A DNA stretch of 62,635 bases from an uncultured Spirochaetia bacterium (GCA_964636885.1 CAZWVA010000001.1:52228-114862); one strand, 5' to 3'. Positions 28,179 through 58,411 are shown, counted from the first letter of the stretch. Notes: generated by a model not told the origin, from the sequence alone. A program made the numbers and translations.

Positions 28179-28202
28179 TGTAAGATTTTCTGACACCTGA
28201 CA
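28179..28202. promoter_or_regulatory. Upstream activator-like palindrome, site 1
   Basis: TGTAAGATTTTCTGACA followed by CCTGACA. Confidence 0.75.
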
Positions 28203-28244
28203 CCTTCTTAAGCCTTAATCCCAACAAAATAGTACAGATTCCAT

Positions 28245-28260
28245 TGGCATTCTTCTTGCA
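28245..28260 (+). promoter_or_regulatory. sigma54 promoter of the CBS-cco-cba operon
   Basis: TGGCAT-TCTTC-TTGCA. Confidence 0.8.
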
Positions 28261-28297
28261 AATTTTGAAGAAACGACTAGGTTGAGAGGCCTACAAA

Positions 28298-28678
28298 ATG
28301 ATCGTAAAGAAATACATGACCCCAAATCCCGTTACCGTGACCCCTGAAGATGACGTTAGGGCCACATTCAATCTGCTATTTGAACACGGTTTTCGTCAGG
28401 CTCCGGTGGTTAAGGATGGAAAGCTTGTAGGCATAGTTACGGACAGGGATCTGCGAACGGCCATTGCACACATAACCCCCGAGTCCCATATTACCGTAGG
28501 AGATGTTATGACATCTGACCCTATTACCGTTACTGAGTATACGAGTATAGAAAAGGCCGCTCGAATGATCTGCCATCACAAGTTCAACGCCCTACCGGTT
28601 ACCTCCGATATGGGTGAATTGGTGGGGATTATAACTACGATCGATATACTCGAAGGTTTACTTGATGTCTATGTGTAG
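28298..28678 (+). CDS. CBS domain-containing protein (AcuB-like)
   Basis: Two CBS repeats: MTPNPVTV, PVVKDGKLVGIVTDRDLR, LVGIITTIDIL. Confidence 0.9.
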   Translation: MIVKKYMTPNPVTVTPEDDVRATFNLLFEHGFRQAPVVKDGKLVGIVTDRDLRTAIAHITPESHITVGDVMTSDPITVTEYTSIEKAARMICHHKFNALPVTSDMGELVGIITTIDILEGLLDVYV

Positions 28679-28779
28679 GAAGAAACCGTCGAATAGAAGG
28701 GATGAGATCCACGTAATAAGACGGAGAGAAAGGGACCGGCTGCCAGTGCTGGGTGTTTATGAAGGGAGAGTACGGTTAG

Positions 28780-31245
28780 GTGAAAGAGATACGAGAAACT
28801 CTGTGTCCTCCTAGCGCGGGTTACACTCTCAACCAACCCTTAGAACAAACCCACTGCTTTCACTGCGGCGATGAGCTTGTTCCCTCGAGAGTAGTGGAAT
28901 CGAATGGTAGGCTTTTCTGTTGCACGGGCTGCCGCTCCGTTTATGAACTCCTGCATCAACTAGGTCTTGACGACTTCTATAGGCTAAAGGAAGCGCTGTA
29001 TAAAGAGGAAGTAAGACCGCCGATCGATCCGGATTCCTCAGAGAGCTATGAGTATCTCAATCAGGATAACTTTATAAAACTCTATACGACCGAGGAATCC
29101 CCGCTCACGATGGATTTCTATATCGAGGGGATTCACTGTGCCGCCTGCCTTTGGCTCATAGAGAAGATCCCCGATACCGTGCCAGACGTTGAATCTGTTT
29201 CCCTTAACATGTCCACGAACGTGGCCGAGGTGACCTTTAAGAAGGGGGGGATGTTTTCAGCCTTTCCCGAAACGGTAAAGAGGTTTGGCTATAGGGCCCA
29301 TCCCATAAGGGTCGGTGAAGAGGCTAAAGGGCTTAGGAAAAGGGAGAACAGAAGGTCTCTTATTCGCTTAGGGGTTGCAGCGGCTTGCGCCGGGAATATA
29401 ATGTTACTCTCTGCGGCCATATACTCGGGTGCCACGGGTGTATTTGCCGAGCAGTTTGCGCTACTAAACCTTATACTGGCCATTCCTGTAGTTACGTATA
29501 GCGCCTTTCCGTTTTATAGAAGCGTGCTTTCTTCCTTGAGGGCAAGGCGTGCAACCGTTGATATACCTATCGTATTTGTCATCGTATCGGGCTTTGTCCT
29601 AAGCGCTTATAATTACCTGAGAGGTAGCGACCGGATTTACTTCGACTCAATAACTACCTTTATATTCCTTCTCCTTTCGAGTAGGTATTTCTTAAGAAGC
29701 GTTCAGGAGAGGATATCGGAGAGAGAGTCTTTTAATAGGGGTCTCTTCTCTTTGAACCGGGTTCTCGTATGGGATCATAAGACCCAGCAGTACTTCTTTC
29801 AACCAATAGGAGATCTTAAACCCGGGGACAGGATAAAACTGACAAAGGGAGACCGTATTCCAGCCGATGGCAAGCTCCTGTCTTTTAGTGTCCAGTTAAA
29901 CCTCTCCGTTCTTACCGGAGAGAATATACCTCAAACGGTTTTGAAGGATGGTGATGTGTTTGCGGGCTCGATAATCGAGTCTGAGGAGGCCATTATAGAG
30001 GTAATAAAGACGGGTAGACAAACGCGCATAGGTGGAATACTGAATGAGGTCGAGAGAAACTATAAGAGCAGATTCGGTTTTTCCACATACAGTGATAGGT
30101 ATGCAACTGTATTTACCTCACTTGTCGGAATAATCGCCACCGCCTCGTTTCTCACCCTCTCTTCGATCTACGGTTCCTCGGAGGGCTTAAATAGGGTAAT
30201 CGCCTTTATCCTGATTGCCTGTCCTTGCGCCTTTGTCTTTGCACTTCCCCTCTCGCTCGGTTTATCCCTCAAGTCGGCGATTGAAAGCGGGTTTCTCGTT
30301 AAGGACATAGGGGTCTTTGAGAAGCTCCAGCGCCTAAGAAACGTGTTCTTTGACAAGACGGGTACCCTAACAAAAGGGGTATTCAGGATACTACACTGGG
30401 ACGTTGCGGGGTTATCCCAGGAGGACGTTGCGGCTATACTCGCTATAGAAAGGCAGTCCAACCATCCAATAGCCCGTGCCATAGTGAGTTATCTTTCGGA
30501 TAGGATGCTGATCCTACCAGATGTAAGGGACTTTAAACATATCTATTCAAAGGGAATAGAGGCAAAGGTAAACGGCCATATTTATAGATTCGAATCCGAG
30601 AGGGACATGAACCATAAGGGTGATATAAACAAGGTCATAACGACGAGGGTACTCATATATAGGGACGAAGAGCCGATCTCGGAGGTTTTGTTGGGGGATT
30701 CCTTAAAGGAAGATGCCAAATACGTTATAGGTGAGCTTAAGGCTAGAGGTCTCAACGTCTATATACTCTCAGGTGATAAGGAAGAGAGCGTAAAAGGGGT
30801 TGCGGAGAGGCTTTCTATTCCTCAAGAAAACGTTTTCTGGGAGAAGACCCCTGAAGAGAAGTCTGGGATCATTAAAAGCAACGGGAACTCGATGATGGTG
30901 GGGGATGGGTTAAACGACGCCGGGGCACTATCGTCGGCGTATATAGGCGTTGCCATACAGGGAAGCGTAGAGGAGAGTCTCAAGGTATCGGACGTTTACG
31001 TATTAAACAACGATCTATTTACTATTTTGGATTTTCTGGATCACGGAAGTGCCACCGTACAAACGATAAAGCGAAACAGGGTTTTCTCAATCGTCTATAA
31101 CATGACGGCTGGGACCCTCGCCCTACTGGGTTACATAAATCCCCTCATTGCGGCTGTACTTATGCCCTTAAGCTCACTTCTACTCATAAGCTCGACCCTA
31201 TACGGAAAAAGCAGGTCCAGGGTGAGAGAGAGGGTTTATTCATGA
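28780..31245 (+). CDS. ccoI: Copper-translocating P1B-type ATPase of the cbb3 cluster (CcoI/FixI)
   Basis: N-terminal CFHCG and CCTGC, HCAAC HMA, ACPCA, DKTGTLT; adjacent to ccoS/ccoN. Confidence 0.85.
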   Translation: MKEIRETLCPPSAGYTLNQPLEQTHCFHCGDELVPSRVVESNGRLFCCTGCRSVYELLHQLGLDDFYRLKEALYKEEVRPPIDPDSSESYEYLNQDNFIKLYTTEESPLTMDFYIEGIHCAACLWLIEKIPDTVPDVESVSLNMSTNVAEVTFKKGGMFSAFPETVKRFGYRAHPIRVGEEAKGLRKRENRRSLIRLGVAAACAGNIMLLSAAIYSGATGVFAEQFALLNLILAIPVVTYSAFPFYRSVLSSLRARRATVDIPIVFVIVSGFVLSAYNYLRGSDRIYFDSITTFIFLLLSSRYFLRSVQERISERESFNRGLFSLNRVLVWDHKTQQYFFQPIGDLKPGDRIKLTKGDRIPADGKLLSFSVQLNLSVLTGENIPQTVLKDGDVFAGSIIESEEAIIEVIKTGRQTRIGGILNEVERNYKSRFGFSTYSDRYATVFTSLVGIIATASFLTLSSIYGSSEGLNRVIAFILIACPCAFVFALPLSLGLSLKSAIESGFLVKDIGVFEKLQRLRNVFFDKTGTLTKGVFRILHWDVAGLSQEDVAAILAIERQSNHPIARAIVSYLSDRMLILPDVRDFKHIYSKGIEAKVNGHIYRFESERDMNHKGDINKVITTRVLIYRDEEPISEVLLGDSLKEDAKYVIGELKARGLNVYILSGDKEESVKGVAERLSIPQENVFWEKTPEEKSGIIKSNGNSMMVGDGLNDAGALSSAYIGVAIQGSVEESLKVSDVYVLNNDLFTILDFLDHGSATVQTIKRNRVFSIVYNMTAGTLALLGYINPLIAAVLMPLSSLLLISSTLYGKSRSRVRERVYS

Positions 31246-31427
31246 ACATACTCTTTTTAACGCTTGCGATCTCAATGGCGATAGCCCTCGTCTTTTTAGT
31301 GGCCTTTATATGGGCGACCAAAAAGGGGCAGTACGATGATCTAATAACCCCTAGCCATAGGATACTGATAGATGATTTTGAGACAAAAAAGAACCGGAAA
31401 GAGAAGGAGGATAAAGTAAATGGTTGA
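31242..31427 (+). CDS. ccoS: cbb3-type oxidase assembly protein
   Basis: AFIWATKKGQYDDL..P..RILIDD. Confidence 0.9.
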   Translation: MNILFLTLAISMAIALVFLVAFIWATKKGQYDDLITPSHRILIDDFETKKNRKEKEDKVNG

Positions 31428-33582
31428 CAGGAGTGAAGTCAACGGCAAATCGATAGAGAGGGTCATCTATGACGATGATATCGTAAAGAGTTTCCTCTTT
31501 GCGACGATCCTCTGGGGAGCGGCGGCTTTTCTTGTGGGTTTGCTGGTGGCACTTGAACTCGCCTTTTGGAAGGCCAATCTCGATCTTCCGTGGCTGACAT
31601 TTGGAAGGATTCGACCACTTCACACGAATGCGGCGATTTTCGCCTTTGGTGGGAATATCATTTTTGCGGGGACTTACCATTCGATTCAAAGACTGCTTAA
31701 GACGCGCTTATATTCGGATATTCTGAGTAGGATCCACTTCTGGGGCTGGCAGCTTATCATCGTGGCGGCCCTAATCACCCTGCCCCTTGGGTATTCTCAA
31801 GGCAAAGAGTATGCGGAGCTTGAGTGGCCGATCGATATCGCAATCGCCTTGGTTTGGGTAATCTTTGGTGTTAACTTCTTTGGAACCATAGCCATAAGGA
31901 GGGTGAAACACCTATATGTGGCTATATGGTTCTATATCGCTACGATAATAACGGTAGCGGTACTACATATAGTAAATTCCATCGAGATCCCCGTAGGTTT
32001 TCTGAAGAGCTATCCCGTCTATGCTGGGGTACAGGACGCCCTTGTTCAATGGTGGTATGGACACAATGCTGTGGCCTTCTTCCTTACCACCCCCTTTCTG
32101 GGACTCATGTATTATTACGTTCCAAAGGCCGCCAATCGACCGATATACAGTTACAAATTGTCTATAGTCCATTTCTGGTCCCTGGTTTTCATATACATAT
32201 GGGCCGGGCCTCACCATCTGCTGAATTCGGCACTCCCGGACTGGGCACAGACCCTTGGAATGATCTTCAGTCTCATGCTGTGGGCGCCAAGCTGGGGAGG
32301 GATGATAAACGGGCTCCTCACGCTTAGAGGGGCATGGGAAAGGCTTCGCACGGATCCGATAATAAAGTTTCTGGCCGTAGCCGTAACGTTCTATGGAATG
32401 TCGACGTTTGAAGGGCCTCTTATGTCCATTAAGTCGGTAAATTCGCTTGCTCATTATACGGACTGGATCATCGCCCATGTCCATGGGGGTACGCTCGGAT
32501 GGAACGGTTTTCTTACGTTTGGGATTATCTACTATCTTGTGCCTAAGCTCTGGAATAACAATATGTATAGCCAAAGACTCATGAACGCCCACTTCTGGAT
32601 AGGTTTCTTGGGGATTCTTCTCTACTATATCTCGATGTGGGCAAGCGGTATCACACAGGGGCTAATGTGGAGAGCAGTTGATGGGAACGGTCAACTCGTT
32701 TACCCAGACTTTGTTGAGACCGTTATGAGAATCATCCCGCTCTACTACGTAAGGTTTCTTGGTGGAACGCTTTATATCGTTGGTTTCTTCCTTCTGATCT
32801 ACAACGTTTGGGTGACCATTAAAACCGCTCCTCGGGAAGGAAGGGTTGCAACCGTTATTGAGGTTACTCCGTCCAAGGCCGAAGCACTAGGTACAGGCCA
32901 TAGAAAACTCGAGGCACTAGGAGCCGTGTTTTCGGTTCTACTCTTTATATCCATTGCGGTCGGATCCATTATTGAGATAATTCCGACCCTTTCTATCCAC
33001 AAATACCTTCCTGCCACATCCAAAACAAGGCCTTATACCCCGCTTGAGCTTGCCGGTAGGGATATCTATATCAAGGAGGGTTGCTATGTATGCCATTCGC
33101 AGATGGTAAGAAAACTGTCGTTTGATGTTCTCAGATTCGGACCAAACTCTACGATAGAGGAATCCATGTACGACAGGCCATTTCAGTGGGGGTCAAAAAG
33201 AACAGGTCCTGATCTGGCAAGGGTTGGGGTGAAATATCCGGATATGTGGCATTATCGCCATATGATGAATCCAAGGGATATTACTCCAAACTCGATTATG
33301 CCTTCGTACCCATGGCTTGCCGAGAGAAAAATAGACTATATCTCCCTAAGAAAAAAGCTGAGCGTCATGAAGCGACTCGGCGTCCCCTATAAGGATGACG
33401 AGGTAGCAAATGCCGATATCGATGCCGAGAAGGAGGCCGAAAGGATATATGAGGGTCTTATCACTCAGGATCCGTCGCTTAAGGGGATAAAAGACAAGGA
33501 GATCATCGCCCTTATTTCGTACTTGCAATCCCTGGGCAAGAGAACCACCCAACAACAGGAGGTGTCAAGATCAACCAGATAG
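31420..33582 (+). CDS. ccoN: Fused cbb3-type cytochrome c oxidase subunits I/II (CcoN-CcoO)
   Basis: FGRIRPLHTN, WWYGHNAVAFFLT, WAGPHHL, AHVH; CcoO part with CYVCHSQMVR and WGSKRTGPDLAR. Confidence 0.95.
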   Translation: MVDRSEVNGKSIERVIYDDDIVKSFLFATILWGAAAFLVGLLVALELAFWKANLDLPWLTFGRIRPLHTNAAIFAFGGNIIFAGTYHSIQRLLKTRLYSDILSRIHFWGWQLIIVAALITLPLGYSQGKEYAELEWPIDIAIALVWVIFGVNFFGTIAIRRVKHLYVAIWFYIATIITVAVLHIVNSIEIPVGFLKSYPVYAGVQDALVQWWYGHNAVAFFLTTPFLGLMYYYVPKAANRPIYSYKLSIVHFWSLVFIYIWAGPHHLLNSALPDWAQTLGMIFSLMLWAPSWGGMINGLLTLRGAWERLRTDPIIKFLAVAVTFYGMSTFEGPLMSIKSVNSLAHYTDWIIAHVHGGTLGWNGFLTFGIIYYLVPKLWNNNMYSQRLMNAHFWIGFLGILLYYISMWASGITQGLMWRAVDGNGQLVYPDFVETVMRIIPLYYVRFLGGTLYIVGFFLLIYNVWVTIKTAPREGRVATVIEVTPSKAEALGTGHRKLEALGAVFSVLLFISIAVGSIIEIIPTLSIHKYLPATSKTRPYTPLELAGRDIYIKEGCYVCHSQMVRKLSFDVLRFGPNSTIEESMYDRPFQWGSKRTGPDLARVGVKYPDMWHYRHMMNPRDITPNSIMPSYPWLAERKIDYISLRKKLSVMKRLGVPYKDDEVANADIDAEKEAERIYEGLITQDPSLKGIKDKEIIALISYLQSLGKRTTQQQEVSRSTR

Positions 33583-33743
33583 CCTTATCGTACTACGGGA
33601 ATAAAGAGATAGTTGTCGTCGCTCTCATAATATTCTTTGTGGTGTTTATAGGTTTGGTTATTTGGGTACACCTAAAACCGAATCAGAAGATCTATGAAGA
33701 GCTAGAACGATTACCATTAGAAAGCGAGGAGGACAAGAGATGA
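33570..33743 (+). CDS. ccoQ: cbb3-type oxidase subunit 3; no canonical start codon, probable ATC start
   Basis: Frame reads (I)NQIALSYYGNKEIVVVALIIFFVVFIGLVIWVHLKPNQKIYEELERLPLESEEDKR*; single TM plus LPL motif, between ccoO and ccoP; AGGAGG at 33557-33562. Confidence 0.8.
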   Translation: MNQIALSYYGNKEIVVVALIIFFVVFIGLVIWVHLKPNQKIYEELERLPLESEEDKR

Positions 33744-34321
33744 GTGATACAAGGCAGGAGGAAGGCAAATTAATAGAGGGTCATGAATACGACGGTATTA
33801 GAGAACTAAACAATCCGCTTCCTGGCTGGTGGTTAATGACCTTTTACATCACCATAATCTTTGCCGTCGTCTACTTCACATATTATCATCTTCTTGGAGG
33901 CCCCACGCTCGACCAAGAGCTCGCTCAAAAGATGGGTGAGATTAAGGCCGCAAGAACCGAGGCGGAGAAGACTAAAGGGGTAAAATCCGAAGAGGAACTC
34001 AGGGCCCTTCTTAATAATCGGGAGGTTCTGGCACAGGGTAAAGCCGAGTTTACCGCAAAGTGTACCCCGTGTCATGGAAACAACGGACAGGGTGTTATCG
34101 GGCCGAACCTAACAGATGACTACTGGATACACGGCGACGGAAGGATTTCCTCAATACTGGGAATCATTAATGAGGGGGTGCCTGACAAGGGAATGCCTCC
34201 CTGGAAGGGGGTCATTTCCCCTGATCTTATGGAAAAGGTGGCGGTATACGTCTACAGCCTTCATGGTACAAACCCTGAAGGGGCAAAACCGCCACAGGGG
34301 GTGAAGGTAGAGTACAGATGA
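33740..34321 (+). CDS. ccoP: cbb3-type oxidase subunit III (monoheme)
   Basis: GHEYDGIRELNNPLPGWW, CTPCH, GPNLTDDYWIHG, GMPPW. Confidence 0.92.
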   Translation: MSDTRQEEGKLIEGHEYDGIRELNNPLPGWWLMTFYITIIFAVVYFTYYHLLGGPTLDQELAQKMGEIKAARTEAEKTKGVKSEEELRALLNNREVLAQGKAEFTAKCTPCHGNNGQGVIGPNLTDDYWIHGDGRISSILGIINEGVPDKGMPPWKGVISPDLMEKVAVYVYSLHGTNPEGAKPPQGVKVEYR

Positions 34322-35781
34322 AGGTACTGGATCAAAGGAATCTACCCGAAGAGAGATTGGCCACCCTGGATGAGTCTGGAAAAAGGGTTTATATATTCCC
34401 GGCTCAGGTAAAAGGTCTATACAGACGCTGGAGGACGATAGTCCAGGTTATCCTCGTTCTTCTTTTTCTCTTTCTCCCATGGGTTAAGATCGGTGGCCAC
34501 CAGGCGGTGCTTCTGGATATATCCCAGAGAAGGTTCGCGATCTTTGGTCTGACATTCTGGGCTCACGACGGTCCCCTTATCTTCTTCATACTGGCGGCAC
34601 TTGCAATAGGGCTTGCCTTTGTAACCGCCATATGGGGAAGAATCTGGTGTGGTTGGGCCTGTCCACAAACGGTGTTTATAGACGGTATCTTCAGGCGTAT
34701 CGAGTACTGGGTCATTGGAAGCCACATAAAGCAGATAAACCTGGCAAGGTCTCCCTGGAACGGAGAAAAAATCGTCAAGTACTCCATAGTATGGTTTCTC
34801 TTTACGGTTGTAAGCCTCGTCATTGCCCACAGCTTCCTCGCCTATTTTGTAGAGGTCGAGAGACTCGTAGAGATGACTCAACACAGTCCCTACGAGAACT
34901 GGACTGTGTTCCTTATAATGGCTTTCATAACGGCGGTTCTTCTCTTTGACTTCGGGTGGTTCAGGGAACAGTTCTGTATCATCATGTGTCCTTATGGAAG
35001 GTTTCAATCCGTGTTAATGGACGACGATTCGCTTACCGTTTCTTACGATCCCCGTAGGGGAGAGCCCCGCAGGGGAACGGCAAAGCCGGGGGAGGCTGAA
35101 GGAGATTGTATAGACTGTTACAGGTGTGTGATGGTATGCCCCACCGGAATAGACATAAGAAGGGGCTTACAGATGGAATGTATCGGCTGTACGGCGTGCA
35201 TTGACGCATGCGACGAGGTTATGGAGAAAATCGGTAAGCCAAAGAGGCTTATAAGATACGCCACGGGAAACAGCCTAAAGGGGATAAGATCCAGGGTGCT
35301 AAGGCCAAGAGTGGTGATCTATTCCGTGATTCTTGTTATCGTACTATCTCTATTGGCGATTAACGTTTCAAGGCGTGAGGATATTGTGGTAACCATCTTG
35401 AGAGCTCAGGACACGCCATACCAGATCATAATGGATGAAGAGGAGGAGGCCGATGAAGGGGATGAAGATGAGAAAAACGGTGATCTAGAGGTCATAAATC
35501 ACTTTAAAGTCCACCTGAAGAATCAGACCTTTGATGATGCCGACCTGGAAATCGTGGTTCCTGAGGTGTGGAGAGAAAAGCACGTTGAGGTCATCTCTCA
35601 AACCGATTCTATAGATCTTGAGGCCGGAAGGGACCTCACTGTTCATTTCTTCATAAAATTCCCAAGCGGAATAACGTCTAAGACTGGAAAACAACCCATA
35701 AAGCTCATCTTTATGGATTCCAAAAGGAACCAAATAAAATCGGTAAAGGAAATAAATCTTGTCGGACCTAGCTCATTTTAA
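34318..35781 (+). CDS. ccoG: Cytochrome c oxidase accessory 4Fe-4S protein (FixG)
   Basis: GRIWCGWACPQTVF, CPYGRFQS, CIDCYRCVMVCPTGIDIRRG.Q.ECIGCTACIDAC. Confidence 0.92.
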   Translation: MKVLDQRNLPEERLATLDESGKRVYIFPAQVKGLYRRWRTIVQVILVLLFLFLPWVKIGGHQAVLLDISQRRFAIFGLTFWAHDGPLIFFILAALAIGLAFVTAIWGRIWCGWACPQTVFIDGIFRRIEYWVIGSHIKQINLARSPWNGEKIVKYSIVWFLFTVVSLVIAHSFLAYFVEVERLVEMTQHSPYENWTVFLIMAFITAVLLFDFGWFREQFCIIMCPYGRFQSVLMDDDSLTVSYDPRRGEPRRGTAKPGEAEGDCIDCYRCVMVCPTGIDIRRGLQMECIGCTACIDACDEVMEKIGKPKRLIRYATGNSLKGIRSRVLRPRVVIYSVILVIVLSLLAINVSRREDIVVTILRAQDTPYQIIMDEEEEADEGDEDEKNGDLEVINHFKVHLKNQTFDDADLEIVVPEVWREKHVEVISQTDSIDLEAGRDLTVHFFIKFPSGITSKTGKQPIKLIFMDSKRNQIKSVKEINLVGPSSF

Positions 35782-36478
35782 CCGTTTAGTAAGCGAATGG
35801 TCCTTTCTCTCTATTTCGGTTGGCGTATTTATAGCCAGCGTCCTGGGGAGTTCACATTGCGTGTCTATGTGCGGTCCTATTGCCATCACTGTGAATAACG
35901 AGAGCGGATATCTGGGATTCTACCATCTGGGGCGTTTACTGAGCTATCTCATACTAGGGGCGTTAGCCGGTTCTTTTGGAGGGGCATTGCTTTCAAGTAA
36001 ATACCAAATTGTCTCAATCTCTTCTGCCGTTCTAATATCGGTTTTCTTTATTTTCACGGGCTACAGGCTCATAAGGCAGAAACCCTTGGATCTATTCTTT
36101 TTTAAGAAACTGAGTCCCCTTTTATTCACCCCAGCAAGATGGGCTAGGGCACAGAAACCGGCACTGAAATCACTCACAATCGGTGCTATAAACGGTTTTC
36201 TTCCCTGCGGATGGCTTTATGTATTTGTGCTAGGCTCCATAGCCACGAAAGAACCGCTATATAGCGCCGTACTGCTTGCGGTTTTCTGGTTGGGAACGGT
36301 TCCCGCTCTAACCATATTCCCGATCTTTTACAAAAGGATATTGGGTAGGCTCCCTAGGAGACTAAATCAGATAGCCGGGGTAATCCTCGTAGTCGTTGGA
36401 TTAGTGAACGTTTTACTCATCGTTCTAACTCGTGTAATGCCGGTCACCCATTCCATCCACAATATACATCACCATTGA
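35759..36478 (+). CDS. Sulfite exporter TauE/SafE (DsbD_2) family membrane protein of cbb3 clusters
   Basis: HCVSMCGP, YHLGRLLSY, GFLPCGWLY, FWLGTVP. Confidence 0.85.
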   Translation: MSDLAHFNRLVSEWSFLSISVGVFIASVLGSSHCVSMCGPIAITVNNESGYLGFYHLGRLLSYLILGALAGSFGGALLSSKYQIVSISSAVLISVFFIFTGYRLIRQKPLDLFFFKKLSPLLFTPARWARAQKPALKSLTIGAINGFLPCGWLYVFVLGSIATKEPLYSAVLLAVFWLGTVPALTIFPIFYKRILGRLPRRLNQIAGVILVVVGLVNVLLIVLTRVMPVTHSIHNIHHH

Positions 36479-36567
36479 TCAGAGACATTTATGGTGATTC
36501 TACGTTGAAATTCGATAACATCGGATTTAAAATAGACTAGCCAAAACCTTTTTCAAGGGGAGGAGAT

Positions 36568-36690
36568 ATGGAAAGGGAGAAAAGGGAATTTAAGCCTGTA
36601 GGGGCCATGGTCTTTTTCATCTTTATTATAATCCTTTTTGCCCTTATGTGGTTCTCTGTCTATCTGGTAAATCTCGCCGAGGGGAGGTAG
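36568..36690 (+). CDS. cbaD: ba3-type oxidase subunit IIa (40 aa, missed by the ORF track)
   Basis: MEREKREFKPVGAMVFFIFIIILFALMWFSVYLVNLAEGR; KPxGA...W..VY pattern, RBS GGAGGAG, directly before subunit II. Confidence 0.8.
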   Translation: MEREKREFKPVGAMVFFIFIIILFALMWFSVYLVNLAEGR

Positions 36691-36693
36691 GAG

Positions 36694-37170
36694 ATGAAGG
36701 TAGACCCTTTTGAAAAGATCGCTATTTTTGTTGGTGGCGTGCTTCTGGTCGCCTTTCTCATAGCGATAGTCTATGCCAACTTTGGTTGGGGTATAAAGAT
36801 CCCCTCATGTGAAGCGGATACGAAGCCCTTTACAAAGGGGGCCTTCATTGAGAGCGGTCCACGGTCCTACGAGGTGCACATATTGACCAAGATGTGGTAT
36901 TTCGATATGGGGGATAACAGGAATGAAATCACCATTCCCGTTGGCTCAAGGGTAACCTTCTTTGTTACGAGCGGTGATGTCATACACGGTGTTAAGATTC
37001 CAAGCAAGAACATAAACATGATGGCCATCCCTGGAGTGGTCGGTAGACTGGAAACCACATTCGATAAGCCCGGGGAGTACATGGTTATCTGCCATGAGTA
37101 CTGTGGAATAGGACACCAGGGTATGTATGGGAAGGTAAGGGTCACCGAAGAGGTGGCCACAGGTAGGTGA
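36694..37170 (+). CDS. cbaB: ba3-type (family B) cytochrome c oxidase subunit II
   Basis: DVIHG and CHEYCGIGHQGM CuA ligands, one N-terminal TM. Confidence 0.9.
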   Translation: MKVDPFEKIAIFVGGVLLVAFLIAIVYANFGWGIKIPSCEADTKPFTKGAFIESGPRSYEVHILTKMWYFDMGDNRNEITIPVGSRVTFFVTSGDVIHGVKIPSKNINMMAIPGVVGRLETTFDKPGEYMVICHEYCGIGHQGMYGKVRVTEEVATGR

Positions 37171-37196
37171 TGGTATGGTCTTCAAGGAGGGAAGCC

Positions 37197-38831
37197 ATGG
37201 ACAGAATAAGGTCTTTGACTCTCTGGCATTGGTATATAGGATTTGCGGCTTTATTCCTCGGCCTGTTTTTTGGCTTGAGACAGTCTCTAGCCAGAGCTGG
37301 TATCCTGTCTAACTATGATTACTATCAGGGGCTAACCCTCCACGGCGTGCTAAATGCCCTGGTTTTTACGATCTTCTTCATAGTTGGGTTCCTCTATCTA
37401 ACGACTGAGAAATCCCTGAAAAGACCCCTTAAGACCTACGGGCTTGCCTGGTTAGGCTTCTGGGTCATTCTCATAGGCACCGTTTTGGCGGCGGTGCCGA
37501 TACTGACAAAGAGGGCAAGCGTCCTTTATACCTTCTACCCACCTCTTATGGCCCATCCGAGCTTCTATATAGGGCTTGCATTGGTGGTTGTAGGCTCTTG
37601 GATCTCTGCCCTTGTGGTTTTACTTACCTACTTGGATTGGAGAAAAGAGAACCCAGGTATGAGAATCCCGCTTATGTTTGTGGCAACCGCTACCACCTAC
37701 ATCCTCTGGTTTATCGCGACAATAGGTGTGGCAATCGAGGTTCTTTTTCTCCTTATACCGTGGTCTTTAGGATGGGTGAAGGAAACGAATCCCCTCCTTG
37801 CGAGGACCCTCTTTTGGTACTTCGGCCATCCTCTGGTTTACTTCTGGCTTATGCCCGCCTACCTGACCTGGTATACCATAATGCCTAGGGTAGCGGGCGG
37901 TAAGCTCTACAGCGACCCCATGGCTAGGCTTGCCTTTGTACTCTTTATAGTGTTTTCCATGCCTGTAGGAACCCATCATCAGTTTGCCGACCCAGGTATA
38001 AGTACGGATTGGAAAGCCCTCCATACCTTCTTCACCTTCCTTGTAACCTTTCCGAGTTTATTGACGGCTTTTAATCTAGCAGCCTCTCTCGAGTATGCGG
38101 GAAAAAGCAACGGTGGAAGCGGTCTCTTCGGCTGGTGGACAAGGTTACCATACGGTGATCCGGTCTTTGCCTGTTTCATCTCGGCCATGGTCCTTTTTAT
38201 ATTCGGTGGGATAAGTGGCATAGTAAACGCCTCTTATAACGTGAATATGGTCGTCCACAACACCTCTTTCGTATTCGGCCATTTCCACCTTACAATAGGT
38301 TCGGCGGTCTCCCTTACGTTCTTTGGACTCGTCTACCTTATCCTTCCTCAGCTATCTAGGAGGGAGCTCTTGAGCAAGAGACTCGCTTTGTTCCAGGCCT
38401 ATACCTGGCTTTTAGGCATGCTCATATTTTCCTTTGCAAATATGGCCGCTGGAAGGATGGGGGTTCCTAGGAGAACCGATCTTGGGATCGCCACGTACCA
38501 TTTCCCACCTATTGTGGATCACCTTGAAAAGGTATCGGCCGTAGGTGGTGTTATACTCTATATGAGTTCCCTGATCTTCTATGTGGTGTTTGTTGGAACC
38601 CTTTTCTTTGCGAAGAAAAAAGAGGAGGACTCTATTACCCTACCCATAACAGAGGCCTATCAAACGGAGGCGGAGGCCCCTAGGATATTCGATAGGTGGA
38701 GGGTGTGGATAGGAATTGCGGTCGTTCTCATACTTATAGCATACGCACCTGTGTTACAACAGGTCCTCGGCGTCTCGCCGTTTGCTTCCCCAGGATACGA
38801 TCCAAAATTACCGGTGCCTATACCGAGATAG
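37197..38831 (+). CDS. cbaA: ba3-type (family B) cytochrome c oxidase subunit I; likely start ATG at 37197
   Basis: YYQGLTLHGVLN, FWYFGHPLVYFW, HHQFADPG, VHNT..V.GHFHLT, GVPRR. Confidence 0.92.
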   Translation: MDRIRSLTLWHWYIGFAALFLGLFFGLRQSLARAGILSNYDYYQGLTLHGVLNALVFTIFFIVGFLYLTTEKSLKRPLKTYGLAWLGFWVILIGTVLAAVPILTKRASVLYTFYPPLMAHPSFYIGLALVVVGSWISALVVLLTYLDWRKENPGMRIPLMFVATATTYILWFIATIGVAIEVLFLLIPWSLGWVKETNPLLARTLFWYFGHPLVYFWLMPAYLTWYTIMPRVAGGKLYSDPMARLAFVLFIVFSMPVGTHHQFADPGISTDWKALHTFFTFLVTFPSLLTAFNLAASLEYAGKSNGGSGLFGWWTRLPYGDPVFACFISAMVLFIFGGISGIVNASYNVNMVVHNTSFVFGHFHLTIGSAVSLTFFGLVYLILPQLSRRELLSKRLALFQAYTWLLGMLIFSFANMAAGRMGVPRRTDLGIATYHFPPIVDHLEKVSAVGGVILYMSSLIFYVVFVGTLFFAKKKEEDSITLPITEAYQTEAEAPRIFDRWRVWIGIAVVLILIAYAPVLQQVLGVSPFASPGYDPKLPVPIPR

Positions 38832-38840
38832 GGGGAGAGA

Positions 38841-39413
38841 ATGAAGGGGTTTATAGTTCTACTGTGTATAGTCCTTTGGGCATGTGATTCCGGGCTGCCT
38901 ATAAAAGGAGAGTTTCCCGATATACCTCTAAGGGATCAGGATGGGAGGGAATTCACCTTTTCCCAGCTTAGAGGGAAGGTCTTGGTGGTAAGCTACATAT
39001 ACACCAACTGCCCTGATGTGTGCCACATTATAGGCGCCAGGATGAACGCGTTTAAGAAGAGATTAGACGAGAGTGGTATAGAGGATAGGGTTTATTTTGT
39101 GTCAATAACCCTTGATCCTAAAAGGGATACGCCGGAGGTACTTAAGGCTCATGCCAAGATGATGAAATTGGATCTTAGCAACTGGGTCTTTGTGACCGGG
39201 GATGAGAACGCCATTAATTCAACGATACGGGTGGCGGGGATGGAGGCTATAAAAGGTCCCATTGAGTACTCCGCAAGCGGCCAGGTTTCCTACTCGATAA
39301 CCCATATGGACAGAATAAGCCTGGTGGATGAAAGGGGAAGGATAAGGAAGCACTATAAGGGCAGTGCGTTTGATATGGACGGGCTTTTAAAGGATATAAA
39401 GGGTCTCCTATGA
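38841..39413 (+). CDS. SCO family copper chaperone (lipoprotein)
   Basis: LWAC lipobox-like, YTNCPDVC, ITHMD. Confidence 0.88.
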   Translation: MKGFIVLLCIVLWACDSGLPIKGEFPDIPLRDQDGREFTFSQLRGKVLVVSYIYTNCPDVCHIIGARMNAFKKRLDESGIEDRVYFVSITLDPKRDTPEVLKAHAKMMKLDLSNWVFVTGDENAINSTIRVAGMEAIKGPIEYSASGQVSYSITHMDRISLVDERGRIRKHYKGSAFDMDGLLKDIKGLL

Positions 39414-39479
39414 CATCCCATGCCGGTTCTTCTATCCGTCTTAAATTAAGACGACTTCCGTCAGATTGATCTTATATTT

Positions 39480-40440
39480 TTTATACACGGCTCTACCCAT
39501 AGCGTAACGTCTCGGAATCTCCTTTCGATTCAACGGATATAATTTTACGACACCTGGCTTTTTCCCCAACCCCTGGAAAAGGAGCGTTGACTTCATAACG
39601 ACCGGTGAAAGACACGGGGTTATCGAGGTCTTTTATCCCGAGGAGAAGGGGTTGGAGCTTGAGGTCATCTTTTAGTGGAAGAGGTAAGCCTTATCAACTC
39701 TCTATCGGAGATGGTCTCTTCCTTCCTCGATCGCAGGGTTATGGAGGATGTCCTTAAAGAGAACCTCGTTAGACTAACAAAAAGGAGGCCGTTACGAATC
39801 TATAATCAGCACGGTTACTCGTAGCGTCCATCAGTCTCTGGATCTTCAAGAGGTGCTTGAAAACGCCGTTAAAGCGATTAGCGAGAACGTGGATGGAGTG
39901 GAGAAGTCTCAATCTACCTGGTTGTTGAGAGAGAAGAGGGGGAAGCCGAGGTACGTTTATTGGCCCCGCCGGAAGGGAAGAGGGGTGGCAATAGGGAACA
40001 CCCAGGCACTGGAAGCGCTGAGAAGAAGCGAAGGGAGGTATAGCGACCTCGTTAACGAGGTAAACGGCGGCCTCTTTACGATTGACGATCTCCCAGTTGG
40101 ACGGGGAGGGCTTATACTCGTAATCGACGACGAGATCTCGGTTAGGGAGATTACGAGGGTAACGTTGGAAACATACGGGTATAGGGTAGTTACTGCAAGC
40201 GACGGGGCAGAGACAATAACGTTATATGCGAAAATAAAATAAGGGGAAGGTAAGGGCTGTCATACTCGATATATGGTGCCTATTATGGTGGACGGCTCCG
40301 TTTGCACCAAAGCGCTTAAGAGGATCGACCCTGGGGTAAATATCATAGCGGTAAGCGGGTTTAAGGAGAACGTTGGGTACGCACTGGTTACCGCTACAGA
40401 AGCGGACGCCTTTTTACAGACATACGATCGGCCGTTGTAA
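39480..40440 (+). pseudogene. Collapsed hybrid sensor kinase/response regulator remnant (GAF plus receiver fragments)
   Basis: Frameshifted pieces: TVTRSVHQSLDLQEVLENAV (GAF), LILVIDDEISVREITRVTLETYGYRVVTASDG and MVP..DG....ALKRIDPGVNIIAVSG (REC); no kinase core. Confidence 0.7.
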
Positions 40441-40459
40441 GATTTTCTTACATCTGACA
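40436..40459. promoter_or_regulatory. Upstream activator-like palindrome, site 2
   Basis: TGTAAGATTTTCTTACA followed by TCTGACA. Confidence 0.75.
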
Positions 40460-40501: not shown

Positions 40502-40517
40502 CGGCACCTTTCTTGCA
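40502..40517 (+). promoter_or_regulatory. sigma54 promoter of the second CBS gene
   Basis: CGGCAC-CTTTC-TTGCA. Confidence 0.75.
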
Positions 40518-47697: not shown

Positions 47698-47713
47698 TGC
47701 AATCCTTATGCCA
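47698..47713 (-). promoter_or_regulatory. sigma54 promoter of the nos operon
   Basis: TGGCAT-AAGGA-TTGCA. Confidence 0.8.
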
Positions 47714-47757: not shown

Positions 47758-47781
47758 TGTAAGGTGTCGGATAATCTGACA
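47758..47781. promoter_or_regulatory. Upstream activator-like palindrome, site 3
   Basis: TGTAAGG then TGTCGGATAATCTGACA. Confidence 0.75.
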
Positions 47782-47788
47782 CTTATAT

Positions 47789-47802
47789 AGTGAGCGCTCA
47801 CT
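47789..47802. promoter_or_regulatory. TetR-type operator next to the nos enhancer
   Basis: Perfect palindrome AGTGAGCGCTCACT; related copy at 48395-48414. Confidence 0.65.
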
Positions 47803-47808
47803 CATCGG

Positions 47809-48432: not shown

Positions 48433-48448
48433 CGCAACCAGTGTGCCA
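48433..48448 (-). promoter_or_regulatory. sigma54 promoter of the TetR gene
   Basis: TGGCAC-ACTGG-TTGCG. Confidence 0.75.
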
Positions 48449-48491: not shown

Positions 48492-48515
48492 TGTAAGATG
48501 TCAGGGAATCAGACG
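48492..48515. promoter_or_regulatory. Upstream activator-like palindrome, site 4 (degenerate)
   Basis: TGTAAGA then TGTCAGGGAATCAGACG. Confidence 0.6.
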
Positions 48516-52930: not shown

Positions 52931-52946
52931 TACAATTCGTATGCCA
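52931..52946 (-). promoter_or_regulatory. sigma54-like promoter of the beta-barrel gene (variant -12)
   Basis: TGGCAT-ACGAA-TTGTA. Confidence 0.55.
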
Positions 52947-52999: not shown

Positions 53000-53023
53000 C
53001 GTCTTATACTCTGACATCTGACA
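53000..53023. promoter_or_regulatory. Upstream activator-like palindrome, site 5
   Basis: CGTCTTATACTCTGACA followed by TCTGACA. Confidence 0.6.
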
Positions 53024-53295: not shown

Positions 53296-53311
53296 TGGCA
53301 TAAACCTTGCA
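53296..53311 (+). promoter_or_regulatory. sigma54 promoter of the siroheme reductase
   Basis: TGGCAT-AAACC-TTGCA. Confidence 0.8.
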
Positions 53312-55625: not shown

Positions 55626-55859
55626 TTAGGTTTCATCTATCTTCCTTTGCCTTAGAAGGGATCTTAGAGAAAGCCTTAGAAGGAGTAATAGAATTGGAGG
55701 GCGAAGAAACATCTTGATAAGGCGCCAAAGGTCGCTTGAGCCCAGGTAGATGACAGACTCCCATACCCCTATCTGCGCCTTTAAGGTAACGGAGTCCCCT
55801 TCTACACTCGCATCCTTTACCATCACCTCAAAGTCACCGGAGGGACTAGAAACCTTCAA
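55626..55859 (-). CDS. Hypothetical protein
   Basis: Short ORF downstream of the ferredoxin; no family recognised. Confidence 0.5.
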   Translation of the reverse strand: MKVSSPSGDFEVMVKDASVEGDSVTLKAQIGVWESVIYLGSSDLWRLIKMFLRPPILLLLLRLSLRSLLRQRKIDET

Positions 55860-55878
55860 TGTAGTGTCCTCAAACCGT

Positions 55879-56100
55879 TCACACTAAGATGGTTCGCCAT
55901 TTCCCCACCTTCTCGTCCCCACTCGCTTCTATCCATTGCATACGAATGCATCCTACAGGACAGGGTTCAATACAATGCTCTTTGCTTCCACATCTATCCG
56001 GTTGGATTAGGACTGCCACACCATTAACCATCTCAAGGCATTTGGGACCACAGGCCTCCACGCATATACACAGTAATCCGTATCCACGACAGGTATCCAT
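55879..56100 (-). CDS. 4Fe-4S ferredoxin-like protein with atypical Cys motifs
   Basis: CRGYGLLCICVEACGP and CGSKEHCIEPCP. Confidence 0.65.
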   Translation of the reverse strand: MDTCRGYGLLCICVEACGPKCLEMVNGVAVLIQPDRCGSKEHCIEPCPVGCIRMQWIEASGDEKVGKWRTILV

Positions 56101-56136
56101 TTTTTAGCGAAACCCTTTTCATCTTTAAGAAGGCTA

Positions 56137-56152
56137 AGCAATTTGCGTACCA
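56137..56152 (-). promoter_or_regulatory. sigma54 promoter of the ferredoxin gene
   Basis: TGGTAC-GCAAA-TTGCT. Confidence 0.75.
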
Positions 56153-56202
56153 GGGATTTCACAGGATTTCGCTAGTATTTTGGGATTGATCCGTTGTAGA
56201 GA

Positions 56203-56226
56203 TGTCAGATGTCTTATTTTCTTACA
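56203..56226. promoter_or_regulatory. Upstream activator-like palindrome, site 6
   Basis: TGTCAGA then TGTCTTATTTTCTTACA. Confidence 0.7.
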
Positions 56227-56293
56227 GATTTAGGTGGGTACCCACATTTAAGATTCAAATGGTTTTCTATGGCCTTTCAAACGACCGAATCAC

Positions 56294-56309
56294 TGGCATA
56301 TAGTTTGCT
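56294..56309 (+). promoter_or_regulatory. sigma54 promoter of bioB
   Basis: TGGCAT-ATAGT-TTGCT. Confidence 0.8.
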
Positions 56310-56363
56310 TATCTAGGTTCCACCACATAAAACAAATAGCGATGTATAGAGAGGGAGAATAAG

Positions 56364-57353
56364 ATGACCGAAGACCTGATTAGACGCCTAAAGAAGAAAC
56401 TCCTTAAAGATGAGGAGCCTCTTACCTTCGATGAGGCTTACAATCTCGCCCTTCTTCAAGGGGAATACCTCTTCGATCTTATCGGTCTTTCATACAGGGT
56501 AAAGGAGAAATACAATAAAAGAGGTGTATACCTCTGTAGCATTATAAGTGCCAAAACGGGTGCCTGTTCTGAGAACTGTGCCTTCTGCGCGCAATCCGCC
56601 CACAGTGAATCGCCAGTTTCTGCTCACCCGATGATGGATCCTCCGGAGATACTCAAGGTGGCAAGGGAGGCCGAAGGGTCCGGAGCCTCCGAGTTCTGTA
56701 TCGTAACAAGCGGAAGGGGACCCGATAAAAGGACTTTTAAAAGGGTTCTAGACGCCGTTTATCTGATACGTAGCCATACGGGTCTCAGCGTTGGGTGTTC
56801 CCTCGGTATCCTGACAGAAGAGCAGGCTAGGCTTCTTTTCAAGGCGGGGGTGAATCGCTATAACCATAACCTTGAAGCCTCGCGGAGCTTCTTTCCCAGT
56901 ATCTGCTCAACCCACACGTATGAGGAGCGTCTTAGAACCGCATATCTGGTTAAGGAGAACGGAATGGAGCTCTGTTGTGGCGGGATCTTCGGTATGGGAG
57001 AATCCCTAGAGCAAAGGATCGAACTGGCTTTTGAACTTCGGGAACTCAATCCGACCCTGGTTCCCATAAACTTTCTTAATCCGCGTCCCGGCACCGCCCT
57101 GGCTACGAGGCCTTTACTCACGCCTTTTGATGCCATAAGTATAGTCGCTCTCTTTAGGCTTATCCTTCCTAGGAGTATCCTCATATGCGCCGGAGGGAGA
57201 GAGGTGGTGCTTGGAAACCTCCAGCCCTTGGCCCTCCTTGCAGGAGCCAATGCCCTTATAGCGGGAAACTATCTCACAACCCCCGGACGCTTGCCAAAGG
57301 AGGATATTCAAATGATCGGGGATTTGGAATTGCCCGTTCTAAAGCACGGATAG
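56364..57353 (+). CDS. bioB: Biotin synthase
   Basis: SAKTGACSENCAFCAQS, YNHNLE, LCCGGIFGMGE, VPINFL, GNYLTTPG. Confidence 0.92.
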   Translation: MTEDLIRRLKKKLLKDEEPLTFDEAYNLALLQGEYLFDLIGLSYRVKEKYNKRGVYLCSIISAKTGACSENCAFCAQSAHSESPVSAHPMMDPPEILKVAREAEGSGASEFCIVTSGRGPDKRTFKRVLDAVYLIRSHTGLSVGCSLGILTEEQARLLFKAGVNRYNHNLEASRSFFPSICSTHTYEERLRTAYLVKENGMELCCGGIFGMGESLEQRIELAFELRELNPTLVPINFLNPRPGTALATRPLLTPFDAISIVALFRLILPRSILICAGGREVVLGNLQPLALLAGANALIAGNYLTTPGRLPKEDIQMIGDLELPVLKHG

Positions 57354-57394
57354 CTAACCAAGCGTGGGTCCGGGTTCTTTTGGAAAGAGTAGGT

Positions 57395-57880
57395 CTATAG
57401 CCGAATCTCCACCTTATACCCAAAGGCTACCCCGTTATCGATCAACCTGATCGTCTCTGGGATGACCTTAAAGAATCGAACATCTTCTATCCTCGACGAG
57501 AAACCGCTGTCTCCAAAGAAGAGCTTTACAAATGGATGTTTCTCCGAGTAGGCCTTTATCGCCTTGGGTAATTCCTCCTCAGGGACCCTGTATGCCTTTC
57601 CCTTTATCTGCAGTCCCTTAATCGTCCTCCATTCCGAGTGGTCTTTATTAATCGTAATGGCCACATTGGGGTTTCGAGATAGGTTTATAGAGTGGTCGGA
57701 TTTTGGGCTTGAGATGAAGTATATGGTAAGCCCGTCATTTGCGTAGAAAAGAGAGGCCGCAAAAGGGGTATCGTCCCTCGATGTTGCAAGGGTGATTGTG
57801 TTGTGTCTATTGAGGAGTTCCAAAATGGTTTCTCTTACGCATTCATGTGTGTTTTTATTCATCTCTTGCATGATGAGCAA
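57395..57880 (-). CDS. Pyridoxamine 5'-phosphate oxidase-like (split barrel) protein
   Basis: TITLAT, PFAASLFYA, SSPKSDH..NL..NP.VA.TI, IKGLQIKG. Confidence 0.8.
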   Translation of the reverse strand: MLIMQEMNKNTHECVRETILELLNRHNTITLATSRDDTPFAASLFYANDGLTIYFISSPKSDHSINLSRNPNVAITINKDHSEWRTIKGLQIKGKAYRVPEEELPKAIKAYSEKHPFVKLFFGDSGFSSRIEDVRFFKVIPETIRLIDNGVAFGYKVEIRL

Positions 57881-58302
57881 TAGCCGTAGAGTTCGACCTT
57901 ATGATTGGTAATCTCAAAGTCGTTAAGCCTTGCTACCTCTTTTGAATAACGCTCAATCCTCTCATCTTCAAACTCCGTTATCCTTCCACACCCAATGCAG
58001 ATAAGATGGTCGTGATGCTCTCCCTCGAACTTGACGGGTTCGTATCTGGTTCGTCCCTCGCCGAAATCCCTCTCAAAGGCCAGACCGCACTCCTTAAAGA
58101 GCTTTAGCGTCCTATAGATAGTGGTATATCCGATTTTGGGAGAGAGCCTTCTTACCCTTTCATAGAGCTCTTCTACCGTCATGTGGAGGCCGGGATAACT
58201 GAAGAACTCGTTAAAGATAATGCTCCTCTGCCTCGTGGATTTAAGGCGTTTTTTGGCTATGTATTCGTCGAATACCTTTTTCCTCTTATCTGTGGGCTTC
58301 AA
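57859..58302 (-). CDS. fur: Fur family transcriptional regulator
   Basis: LKSTRQR, TIYRTLKLF, HHDHLICIGCG, LYGYCSSC. Confidence 0.9.
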   Translation of the reverse strand: MKPTDKRKKVFDEYIAKKRLKSTRQRSIIFNEFFSYPGLHMTVEELYERVRRLSPKIGYTTIYRTLKLFKECGLAFERDFGEGRTRYEPVKFEGEHHDHLICIGCGRITEFEDERIERYSKEVARLNDFEITNHKVELYGYCSSCKR

Positions 58303-58318
58303 TGGTATTCTCTTTTAA

Positions 58319-58334
58319 AGCAAAGTTTGTGCCA
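58319..58334 (-). promoter_or_regulatory. sigma54 promoter of the Fur gene
   Basis: TGGCAC-AAACT-TTGCT. Confidence 0.75.
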
Positions 58335-58386
58335 TACGCGGCTCTTTATTCCCCCTAGGGTTCTCTTTTAGATCGAATACCGTGGG

Positions 58387-58411
58387 TGTCAGATTGTAAG
58401 ATTATCTGACA
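58387..58411. promoter_or_regulatory. Upstream activator-like palindrome, site 7
   Basis: TGTCAGAT then TGTAAGATTATCTGACA. Confidence 0.8.

Follow-up and report, generated by a model that had tools for sequence, protein, structure and literature searches.

A conserved three-heptamer element upstream of sigma-54 promoters in Dadabacteria-like genomes: a putative enhancer and its candidate kinase-activator pair

What reads a short sequence unit that recurs seven times in 62,635 nucleotides of DNA from an uncultured bacterium? The stretch in question (GCA_964636885.1, CAZWVA010000001.1:52228-114862, recorded as an uncultured Spirochaetia bacterium; hereafter the window, on which all positions are counted at its whole length) was the subject of an original prediction made from the sequence alone. 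This prediction described seven 17-bp palindromes as enhancers of sigma-54 promoters, read by an activator that would be encoded elsewhere and would act as a switch for O2, nitric oxide (NO) or redox state. Our analysis suggests that the seven sites are probably upstream activating sequences (UAS, enhancers) of a sigma-54 regulon in a Candidatus Dadabacteria-like organism, bound by a lineage-specific response regulator of the NtrC family. Judging from gene neighborhoods in relatives, this regulator is likely to be the activator that is co-transcribed there with a haem-PAS histidine kinase. Candidatus Dadabacteria, which have not been cultivated, are widespread in groundwater, soils, hot springs and oceans, and to our knowledge nothing is known about gene regulation in them.

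A specific three-heptamer unit

All seven predicted 17-mers are present at their predicted positions. Read in a single direction, all seven sites follow one 24-bp layout, A (TGTMAGA)-N3-B (TCTKACA)-C (YCTKACA), in which the three-nucleotide spacer between A and B is A/T. We use the term "site" for this three-heptamer unit and A, B and C for its heptamers. The third heptamer, which the prediction had listed as an addition to the palindrome, abuts B in every case with an offset of 7 nt (8 nt at 58387-58393).

The strict pattern TGTMAGA-N3-TCTKACA matches three times in the window as compared to 0.00 expected (100 shuffles), and the remaining four sites are degenerate. The loose frame TGT-N11-ACA by itself is not significant (13 matches, 7.5 expected), so that the case for the motif is carried by the inner bases together with the third heptamer. 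A 24-nt matrix trained solely on 28 sites of other genomes (the external matrix) assigns the window sites 27.0-38.7 bits, the site at 58395 reaching 34.7 bits with a 25-nt variant, while the maximum in 200 shuffled windows is 19.1 bits. No position in the 62.6 kb other than the seven sites scores above 16 bits. Consequently there are 0 matrix matches within the genes of the window, where the prediction had named equal frequency in coding DNA as the observation that would count against it.

Computed over 26 sites that were chosen without the strict pattern, the information content amounts to 8.2 bits for A, 3.1 for the spacer, 10.2 for B and 10.0 for C. The palindrome stressed by the original prediction is real, but the emphasis was in part misplaced, with the direct repeat B-C being better conserved than A. 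Heptamers A and B are inverted with their centers 10 bp apart, as in a dyad for a dimer of Fis-type helix-turn-helix (HTH) domains; the extra direct copy C is atypical for such a site. The sites sit between real genes, in agreement with the claim that all are intergenic. The site at 40436 begins where a frameshifted receiver-domain remnant has its stop codon, and a 64-amino-acid (aa) open reading frame (ORF) without known family was called across the site at 28179. We rejected a mobile repeat or hairpin, since the shared stretch comprises 24 bp only with differing flanks, and in the degenerate sites the dyad is broken with no change that compensates for it.

Promoter geometry and conservation

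The seven sites are flanked by ten sigma-54 promoters with -24/-12 elements, and all seven lie upstream of such a promoter. In a simple search for GG-N10-GC, strong matches are confined to 28-58.6 kb of the window and each stands beside a site; there are nine of them, and the tenth promoter is a variant with GT at -12 (52931-52946, minus strand). The same scan found no convincing -24/-12 promoter away from the sites anywhere else in the window. Measured from the palindrome center to the GG of the -24 element, the distances are 59, 59, 61, 60, 63, 67/77 and 70/122 bp; they are slightly above the predicted 50-60 bp. Heptamer C faces the nearest promoter in six of the seven sites, just as had been claimed. 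The exception is the site at 53000, where the near promoter lies on the A side and carries GT instead of GC at -12.

A scan of one genome per species (185,579 species) for the pattern TGTMAGANNNTCTKACAYCTKACA returned 15 exact loci, as compared to about 4 chance matches estimated from the size of the collection. Nearly all of these loci belong to Candidatus Dadabacteria or to metagenome-assembled genomes (MAGs) labelled Thermodesulfobacteriota, Desulfobacterota or Deltaproteobacteria; NCBI ranks Dadabacteria as a class of Thermodesulfobacteriota. A sigma-54 promoter is found near every exact locus but one, mostly at 58-116 bp on the C side. The one locus that has no promoter nearby comes from Kiritimatiellae (L008), lies within a CTGACAC-like tandem run and was treated as a chance match. 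In Dadabacteria ERB_12_1 (L009) the COX2, COX1 and SCO1 proteins share 68-82% aa identity with those of the window, and the gene order of locus L018 equals that of the window (TetR, motif, cytochrome c, nosZ). The window proteins were found in metagenome assemblies only.

Outside the window, about 38 of some 44 non-redundant sites lie upstream of a -24/-12 promoter, and related genomes keep the motif before orthologous as well as non-orthologous targets. The motif also emerges when none is supplied beforehand: among all 7-mers, TCTGACA shows the strongest enrichment in the 130 bp that precede 42 non-redundant strong promoters (27 occurrences, 0.77 expected; present at 18 of the 42), and this 7-mer analysis revealed no other conserved upstream element at these promoters.

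Distances to the promoter on the C side (about 44 non-redundant sites) fall at 58-61 (14 sites), 67-72 (7), 79-82 (6), 94-95 (2) and 116 bp (1). The period is about 11 bp by circular statistics (R = 0.78, as compared to a null maximum of 0.59 in 2000 trials), many of the compared sites being orthologous. On the A side, promoters lie at 63-65, 77-86 and 139-143 bp. By a hand tally, the promoter lies exclusively on the C side at about 25 sites and exclusively on the A side at about 6, and 4 sites have promoters on both sides. The short and phased distances imply an activator ring on a single helix face relative to the closed complex, and the orientation bias together with the strong conservation of C suggests that this promoter-proximal heptamer is a real contact. 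The tie to -24/-12 promoters at phased distances, in the window as in other genomes, supports the claim that the motif is an enhancer.

A candidate activator, its kinase and the alternatives

As predicted, the activator is not encoded in the window: none of the ORFs scanned contains a Sigma54_activat domain, and a match to an activator signature at about 20325 is a false positive inside a fumarase-class lyase. A candidate comes from other genomes. In CSP1-2 (L004), PMV_6.24 (L005) and nzgw197 (L006), a full-consensus site with promoter precedes a three-gene operon encoding a GNAT acetyltransferase, a cytoplasmic PAS-PAS histidine kinase and an activator of about 450 aa with the domains Response_reg, Sigma54_activat, AAA_lid_14 and HTH_8. 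In CSP1-2, this site is the sole exact 24-mer of the MAG. On a 2.46-Mb contig (L019), site and promoter stand before a kinase-activator pair, immediately 3' of which follow the motif-bearing promoters of an outer membrane protein (OMP) and a CBS protein, and then the cbb3 cluster. Locus L020 contains GNAT, kinase and activator genes behind TGTCAGA-N11-TCTGACA and a promoter, as well as a motif-driven Hsp20 gene and universal stress protein (USP) genes; it derives from JGI sample Ga0373638, the identifier adjacent to that of the window (Ga0373637), and does not overlap with the window. Activator orthologues are also encoded in the motif-bearing genomes MAG185 (P0021) and AH_259_B03_O07 (P0111).

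MAG185 is labelled Ignavibacteriales. Its loci L014 and L018 carry the Dadabacteria motif and the nos locus in window order, with a TetR protein that is 73% identical, and its activator is of the Dadabacteria type, 81% identical to that of CSP1-2. Either the taxonomic label of MAG185 or the binning of the two loci is probably wrong.

The 120 best database matches of the activator are 68-100% identical and mostly 444-456 aa long, and 118 of these 120 share an invariant recognition helix, GISRDTLYRKLK, in the Fis-type HTH domain. The loop that contacts sigma-54 is GSFTGA or GAFTGA. Among solved structures, NtrC1 from Aquifex aeolicus is the nearest (4l4u, 1e-101), and the protein scores below the curated NCBIfam cut-offs of AtoC (the best, 383 vs 714 bits), NtrC, PEP-CTERM PrsR, GlrR, NtrX, ZraR and LuxO. 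As a control we retrieved 80 metagenome loci with the activator as query and counted sites of at least 18 bits. The 10 loci with activator orthologues (64-87% identity, 142 kb) contain 18 such sites, whereas no such site occurs in the 829 kb of the 70 loci that surround non-orthologous activators (37-44% identity). This control shows that the motif is specific to the lineage and its regulator family, a result that is still compatible with another activator from Dadabacteria.

The sensor PAS domain of the kinase matches the haem-PAS domains of Escherichia coli DosP (1e-17) and FixL (1e-15), with the proximal His and the distal G-x-x-R aligned. The signature [LIV]P..FR..H..Y...MG.GR, which contains the residues of the FixL/DosP haem pocket, is kept in six orthologous kinases. 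This protein appears to contain a FixL-like haem-PAS sensor domain with putative haem binding and is not a FixL orthologue (197 bits vs a cut-off of 850 for the FixL equivalog, NCBIfam NF041777). Within the kinase coding region, a perfect sigma-54 promoter-like sequence, TGGCATGGTAATTGCA, is conserved (L004 4125, L022 9057, L025 1915); it could be an internal promoter of the activator gene or a mere coding constraint.

How do motif and candidate compare with known systems? A TGT...ACA dyad is a frequent target of Fis-type HTH proteins, among them PpsR (TGTC-N10-GACA), NifA (TGT-N10-ACA) and TyrR (TGTAAA-N6-TTTACA), the last two being from the same protein superfamily as the candidate. The sites of NifA and TyrR differ from the motif (TGT-N11-ACA) by one base of spacing each, their sensory domains are different, that of NifA being a GAF domain, and the candidate stays below the cut-offs of NifA (289 vs 529 bits) and TyrR (239 vs 576 bits). 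NorR also acts upstream of a sigma-54 promoter of nitrogen-oxide metabolism genes with three close contacts that are all read by the activator; the idea that such DNA sites contribute to oligomer assembly reportedly goes back to work on this system by Tucker and co-workers in 2010. NorR recognizes three separate GT-N7-AC palindromes at E. coli norVW and Ralstonia norAB (PMC1274295), whereas each site here contains one palindrome (GT-N11-AC) and one extra half-site. NorR senses NO directly through a GAF domain, while the candidate is a receiver-domain protein driven by a kinase. With spacing and domain architecture differing, and 282 bits vs a cut-off of 476, we rejected a NorR regulon site.

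GlrR/QseF resembles the candidate as a receiver-AAA+-HTH regulator with the half-site tetramers TGTC and GACA and three contacts per promoter, reading TGTC-N10-GACA three times at each glmY/glmZ promoter (PMC3045617). Unlike the motif, these are three full palindromes over more than 100 bp that need integration host factor (IHF) and serve a small-RNA regulon. The N9 found in all sites here and 352 bits vs a cut-off of 763 do not fit GlrR. The closest functional analogue is NmpRSTU from Myxococcus xanthus, where a haem-dependent kinase pathway leads to an autoregulated NtrC-like activator of a cbb3-containing, sigma-54-dependent oxygen-utilization regulon (PMC11841059). This system belongs to another lineage, uses a multi-step phosphorelay and recognizes GCGCA-N5-TGCGC as two palindromes 14-15 bp apart, which bear no sequence resemblance to the motif. 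Rhizobial FixL-FixJ, of the FixLJ-FixK2 cascade (cited in PMC6710368), shares with the candidate system a haem-PAS kinase with the same pocket residues and the control of cbb3 oxidase and denitrification genes at low O2. FixJ, however, is a LuxR-type protein that reaches sigma-70 promoters through FixK, whereas the activator proposed here would act directly at sigma-54 promoters. A full-text literature search for the heptamers, TGT-N11-ACA and regulation in Dadabacteria found nothing relevant, the sole match being a LysR-type regulator. In the literature searched, the spacing TGTM-N9-KACA was not found, nor was a usable consensus for the DNA site of Aquifex NtrC4. The motif has no match in this search and a spacing unlike that of NorR, NifA, GlrR and NmpR sites, in line with the claim that it was undescribed.

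We propose the following sequence of events. When O2 falls, the deoxy-haem kinase would phosphorylate the receiver domain of the activator, which would then place an HTH dimer on A-B and one more subunit on C. The activator ring would assemble on one helix face about 60, 70 or 81 bp upstream of -24 and remodel the sigma-54 RNA polymerase. The targets switched on in this way would be the cbb3 and ba3-type oxidases, the copper and haem maturation genes that go with them, clade II nosZ, CBS-domain proteins, oxygen-independent radical S-adenosylmethionine (radical-SAM) enzymes, the secondary regulators TetR and Fur, USP, Hsp20 and the operon of the activator itself. We infer O2 as the signal. Low O2 as the activating direction, as with FixL, is suggested by the target set, which comprises high-affinity oxidases with copper and haem assembly factors, nosZ, oxygen-independent radical-SAM enzymes, USP, Hsp20 and CBS proteins; such a content points to a hypoxia regulon. 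We likewise infer the role assigned to heptamer C. The predicted O2 or redox switch is thereby supported indirectly, by an operon of haem-PAS kinase and NtrC-family activator and by targets that include high-affinity oxidases, nosZ and stress proteins.

Classical sigma-54 enhancers consist of two or three full palindromes and function in either orientation. What is new here is a motif with its regulon for an unnamed subgroup of the NtrC family; its operation resembles that of known two-component sigma-54 enhancers, and the layout of 1.5 palindromes is unusual. A more far-reaching and speculative idea, which we consider doubtful at present, is that a single palindrome with an extra half-site, around a B-C core, would suffice as a minimal directional enhancer: the 24-bp element would seed an activator ring on a fixed helix face, in a preferred orientation and no more than about 35-60 bp upstream of -24. 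A FixL-type O2 sensor would then have been rewired directly onto sigma-54 in Dadabacteria, and the chief control over terminal oxidases and clade II N2O reductase in this lineage would fall to sigma-54.

Several observations weigh against assigning the sites to this kinase-activator pair. The organism is uncultivated, and the proposed binding of the motif by the candidate and the ensuing regulation rest on genomic context. An activator orthologue in the genome of the window was sought without success; the contigs that carry the NosZ of the window are short. The site before the activator operon is degenerate in the clade nearest the window (L020, L021, L023), with one or two good heptamers, and in L019 and L026 the site points away from the kinase operon. 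Orthology among the compared sites makes the phasing and orientation statistics overstate independence. The link between activator and motif is confounded by lineage, both being Dadabacteria-specific, and these genomes encode at least one further activator (L014, 516 aa). Moreover, two promoters before the glycogen phosphorylase gene (L020 15581, L021 18904) bear a different upstream repeat, TTGACA-T6-GTC..., which points to another activator in these genomes that has a site of its own. Finally, direct repeats at a 7-bp spacing would place two HTH domains on different helix faces.

The weak autoregulatory site near the window, the existence of more than one activator gene and the confounding by lineage would also fit a sigma-54 enhancer that is bound by another Dadabacteria activator, sensing for example NO, N2O, copper or energy state. 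We regard this as unlikely: the L014 activator has no HTH_8 match, the candidate has a full-consensus site before its own operon in three genomes and adjoins the cbb3, CBS and OMP targets in L019, and no other activator gene was seen beside a site in about 40 loci. Because a 7-bp step would put identical HTH domains on different helix faces, there is also room for a second protein on B-C. In such a composite element an activator dimer would occupy A-B, and a second factor (a response regulator, a TetR- or Fur-type protein of the regulon, or a bending protein) would set the direction or add a second signal. The better conservation of B-C than of A, the awkwardness of a 7-bp direct repeat for two identical Fis-type HTH domains, the presence of TetR and Fur genes in the regulon and a separate 14-bp palindrome abutting the nosZ site would suit this idea. 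We nevertheless find it quite improbable, as no candidate for the second factor shows a consistent link to the motif; three contacts by a single protein family are the simpler account of the fixed 24-bp unit, and the multiple sites of the NorR and GlrR systems are all read by the activator itself.

It is least probable that the sites are operators of a repressor or of a CRP/FNR-type protein, or a dispersed repeat that lies near promoters by chance. The TGT...ACA ends do resemble CRP-type and PpsR-type boxes (TGTC-N10-GACA for PpsR). However, sigma-54 promoters require an activator, and the motif is the only conserved upstream element that was found; the TGT-N11-ACA spacing at 58-82 bp upstream of -24 is unlike class I or II sites of CRP/FNR; conservation is limited to 24 bp between differing flanks, unlike a mobile repeat; and helical phasing links site and promoter. 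The CRP and FNR boxes themselves (TGTGA-N6-TCACA and TTGAT-N4-ATCAA, near -41.5 or -61.5 of sigma-70 promoters) differ in sequence and spacing from these sigma-54-tied sites. The repeat is real, specific and conserved, and the original interpretation of it as a sigma-54 enhancer is largely right.

Genes behind the sites

Gene assignments in the window are based on Pfam and NCBIfam, and scores in bits are those of the external matrix. UAS 1, TGTAAGA-TTT-TCTGACA-CCTGACA (28179-28202, plus strand, 37.8 bits), lies 59 bp from promoter TGGCATTCTTCTTGCA (28245-28260, plus), which precedes the genes CBS(126 aa)-ccoI-ccoS-ccoNO-ccoP-ccoG-DsbD_2-COX2-COX1-SCO1 (28298-39413). The small COX2 together with COX1 is likely a ba3-like oxidase, a reading taken from subunit sizes and not assigned by a tool. 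CcoN and CcoO are fused into a single 720-aa protein (31420-33582), and the same fusion occurs in L019. On the other side of UAS 1, a P-type cation ATPase is encoded with an N-terminal PTS EIIA(Ntr)-type domain, an unusual fusion (24793-28005, minus). A weak -24/-12-like site, TGGTCTCCTTTTTGCA (28056-28071, minus), is located 117 bp from UAS 1 on its A side; given this site, the ATPase gene may also belong to the regulon.

UAS 2, TGTAAGA-TTT-TCTTACA-TCTGACA (40436-40459, plus, 38.7 bits), stands 59 bp from promoter CGGCACCTTTCTTGCA (40502-40517, plus), which is positioned to drive a 202-aa CBS-domain protein (40571-41179). Just upstream (39413-40440), a receiver-domain gene is split by a frameshift into ORFs at 39853-40242 and 40273-40440, preceded by about 440 bp without a good ORF; this looks like a decaying signalling gene.

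The nos genes are found behind UAS 3, TGTCAGA-TTA-TCCGACA-CCTTACA (47758-47781, minus, 31.3 bits), at 61 bp from promoter TGGCATAAGGATTGCA (47698-47713, minus). They comprise cytochrome c, nosZ, a 204-aa protein, nosD, nosF, nosL and nosY, from 47655 down to 41212 on the minus strand. NosZ is of the lipoprotein type without Tat motif (clade II type). UAS 4, CGTCTGA-TTC-CCTGACA-TCTTACA (48492-48515, minus, 27.0 bits), is 60 bp from promoter TGGCACACTGGTTGCG (48433-48448, minus) of a TetR-family regulator (48414-47809), an arrangement that is also kept in L018. Between the tetR stop codon and the nosZ UAS lies a perfect 14-bp palindrome, AGTGAGCGCTCACT (47790-47803), and a similar one occupies the same place in L018. 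It may be an operator of the TetR regulator, positioned to interfere with the enhancer.

UAS 5, CGTCTTA-TAC-TCTGACA-TCTGACA (53000-53023, plus, 29.8 bits), has the GT-variant promoter TGGCATACGAATTGTA (52931-52946, minus) 63 bp away on its A side. The genes of this promoter run from 52888 down to 48873 on the minus strand and encode an OMP, a COX1-like fragment, a 121-aa protein, DUF488, CopD, a cupin and a 369-aa protein. Promoter TGGCATAAACCTTGCA (53296-53311, plus) precedes a NirA/sulfite-reductase-like gene (to 55565); at 289 bp, its link to UAS 5 is uncertain. UAS 6, TGTAAGA-AAA-TAAGACA-TCTGACA (56203-56226, minus, 29.3 bits), lies between divergent promoters. On the C side, TGGTACGCAAATTGCT (56137-56152, minus, 67 bp) precedes two minus-strand ORFs, a ferredoxin-like one of 73 aa (56100-55879) and one of 77 aa (55859-55626). 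Annotation easily misses both of these small ORFs (55626-56100), of which the first is Cys-rich and the second has a relative in L012. On the A side, TGGCATATAGTTTGCT (56294-56309, plus, 77 bp) would drive a BioB-like radical-SAM gene (56364-57353).

UAS 7, TGTCAGA-TAA-TCTTACA-a-TCTGACA (58387-58411, minus, 34.7 bits as the 25-nt variant), contains one extra nucleotide between B and C. Promoter TGGCACAAACTTTGCT (58319-58334, minus) at 70 bp on its C side belongs to the genes of a Fur-family regulator and a PNPOx-like protein (58302-57395, minus). Promoter TGGCACACAAATTGCT (58524-58539, plus) at 122 bp on the A side precedes a gene for a TIGR04053 (AhbD-like) radical-SAM/SPASM protein (58567-59679, plus), orthologues of which adjoin the motif in L012, L013 and L016. 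Just downstream of this island, at 59930-61921, genes for an ArsR-family regulator, a DsrE-like protein and a sulfide:quinone-oxidoreductase-like flavoprotein have neither a motif nor a sigma-54 promoter associated with them.

How clade II (non-denitrifier) N2O reductases are controlled is a question of climate relevance, which this finding addresses. It supplies a precise 24-bp motif, a named candidate sensor-activator pair and a predicted regulon that covers high-affinity oxidases, nosZ, copper and haem maturation genes and stress proteins. The proposal can be tested with recombinant proteins and synthetic DNA, for which culture of the organism is not needed, and the motif offers a means of annotating the hypoxia regulon across all Dadabacteria MAGs. 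With its asymmetry and strict phasing, the three-heptamer layout is also a compact natural case for the study of how enhancer geometry directs the assembly of an activator ring.

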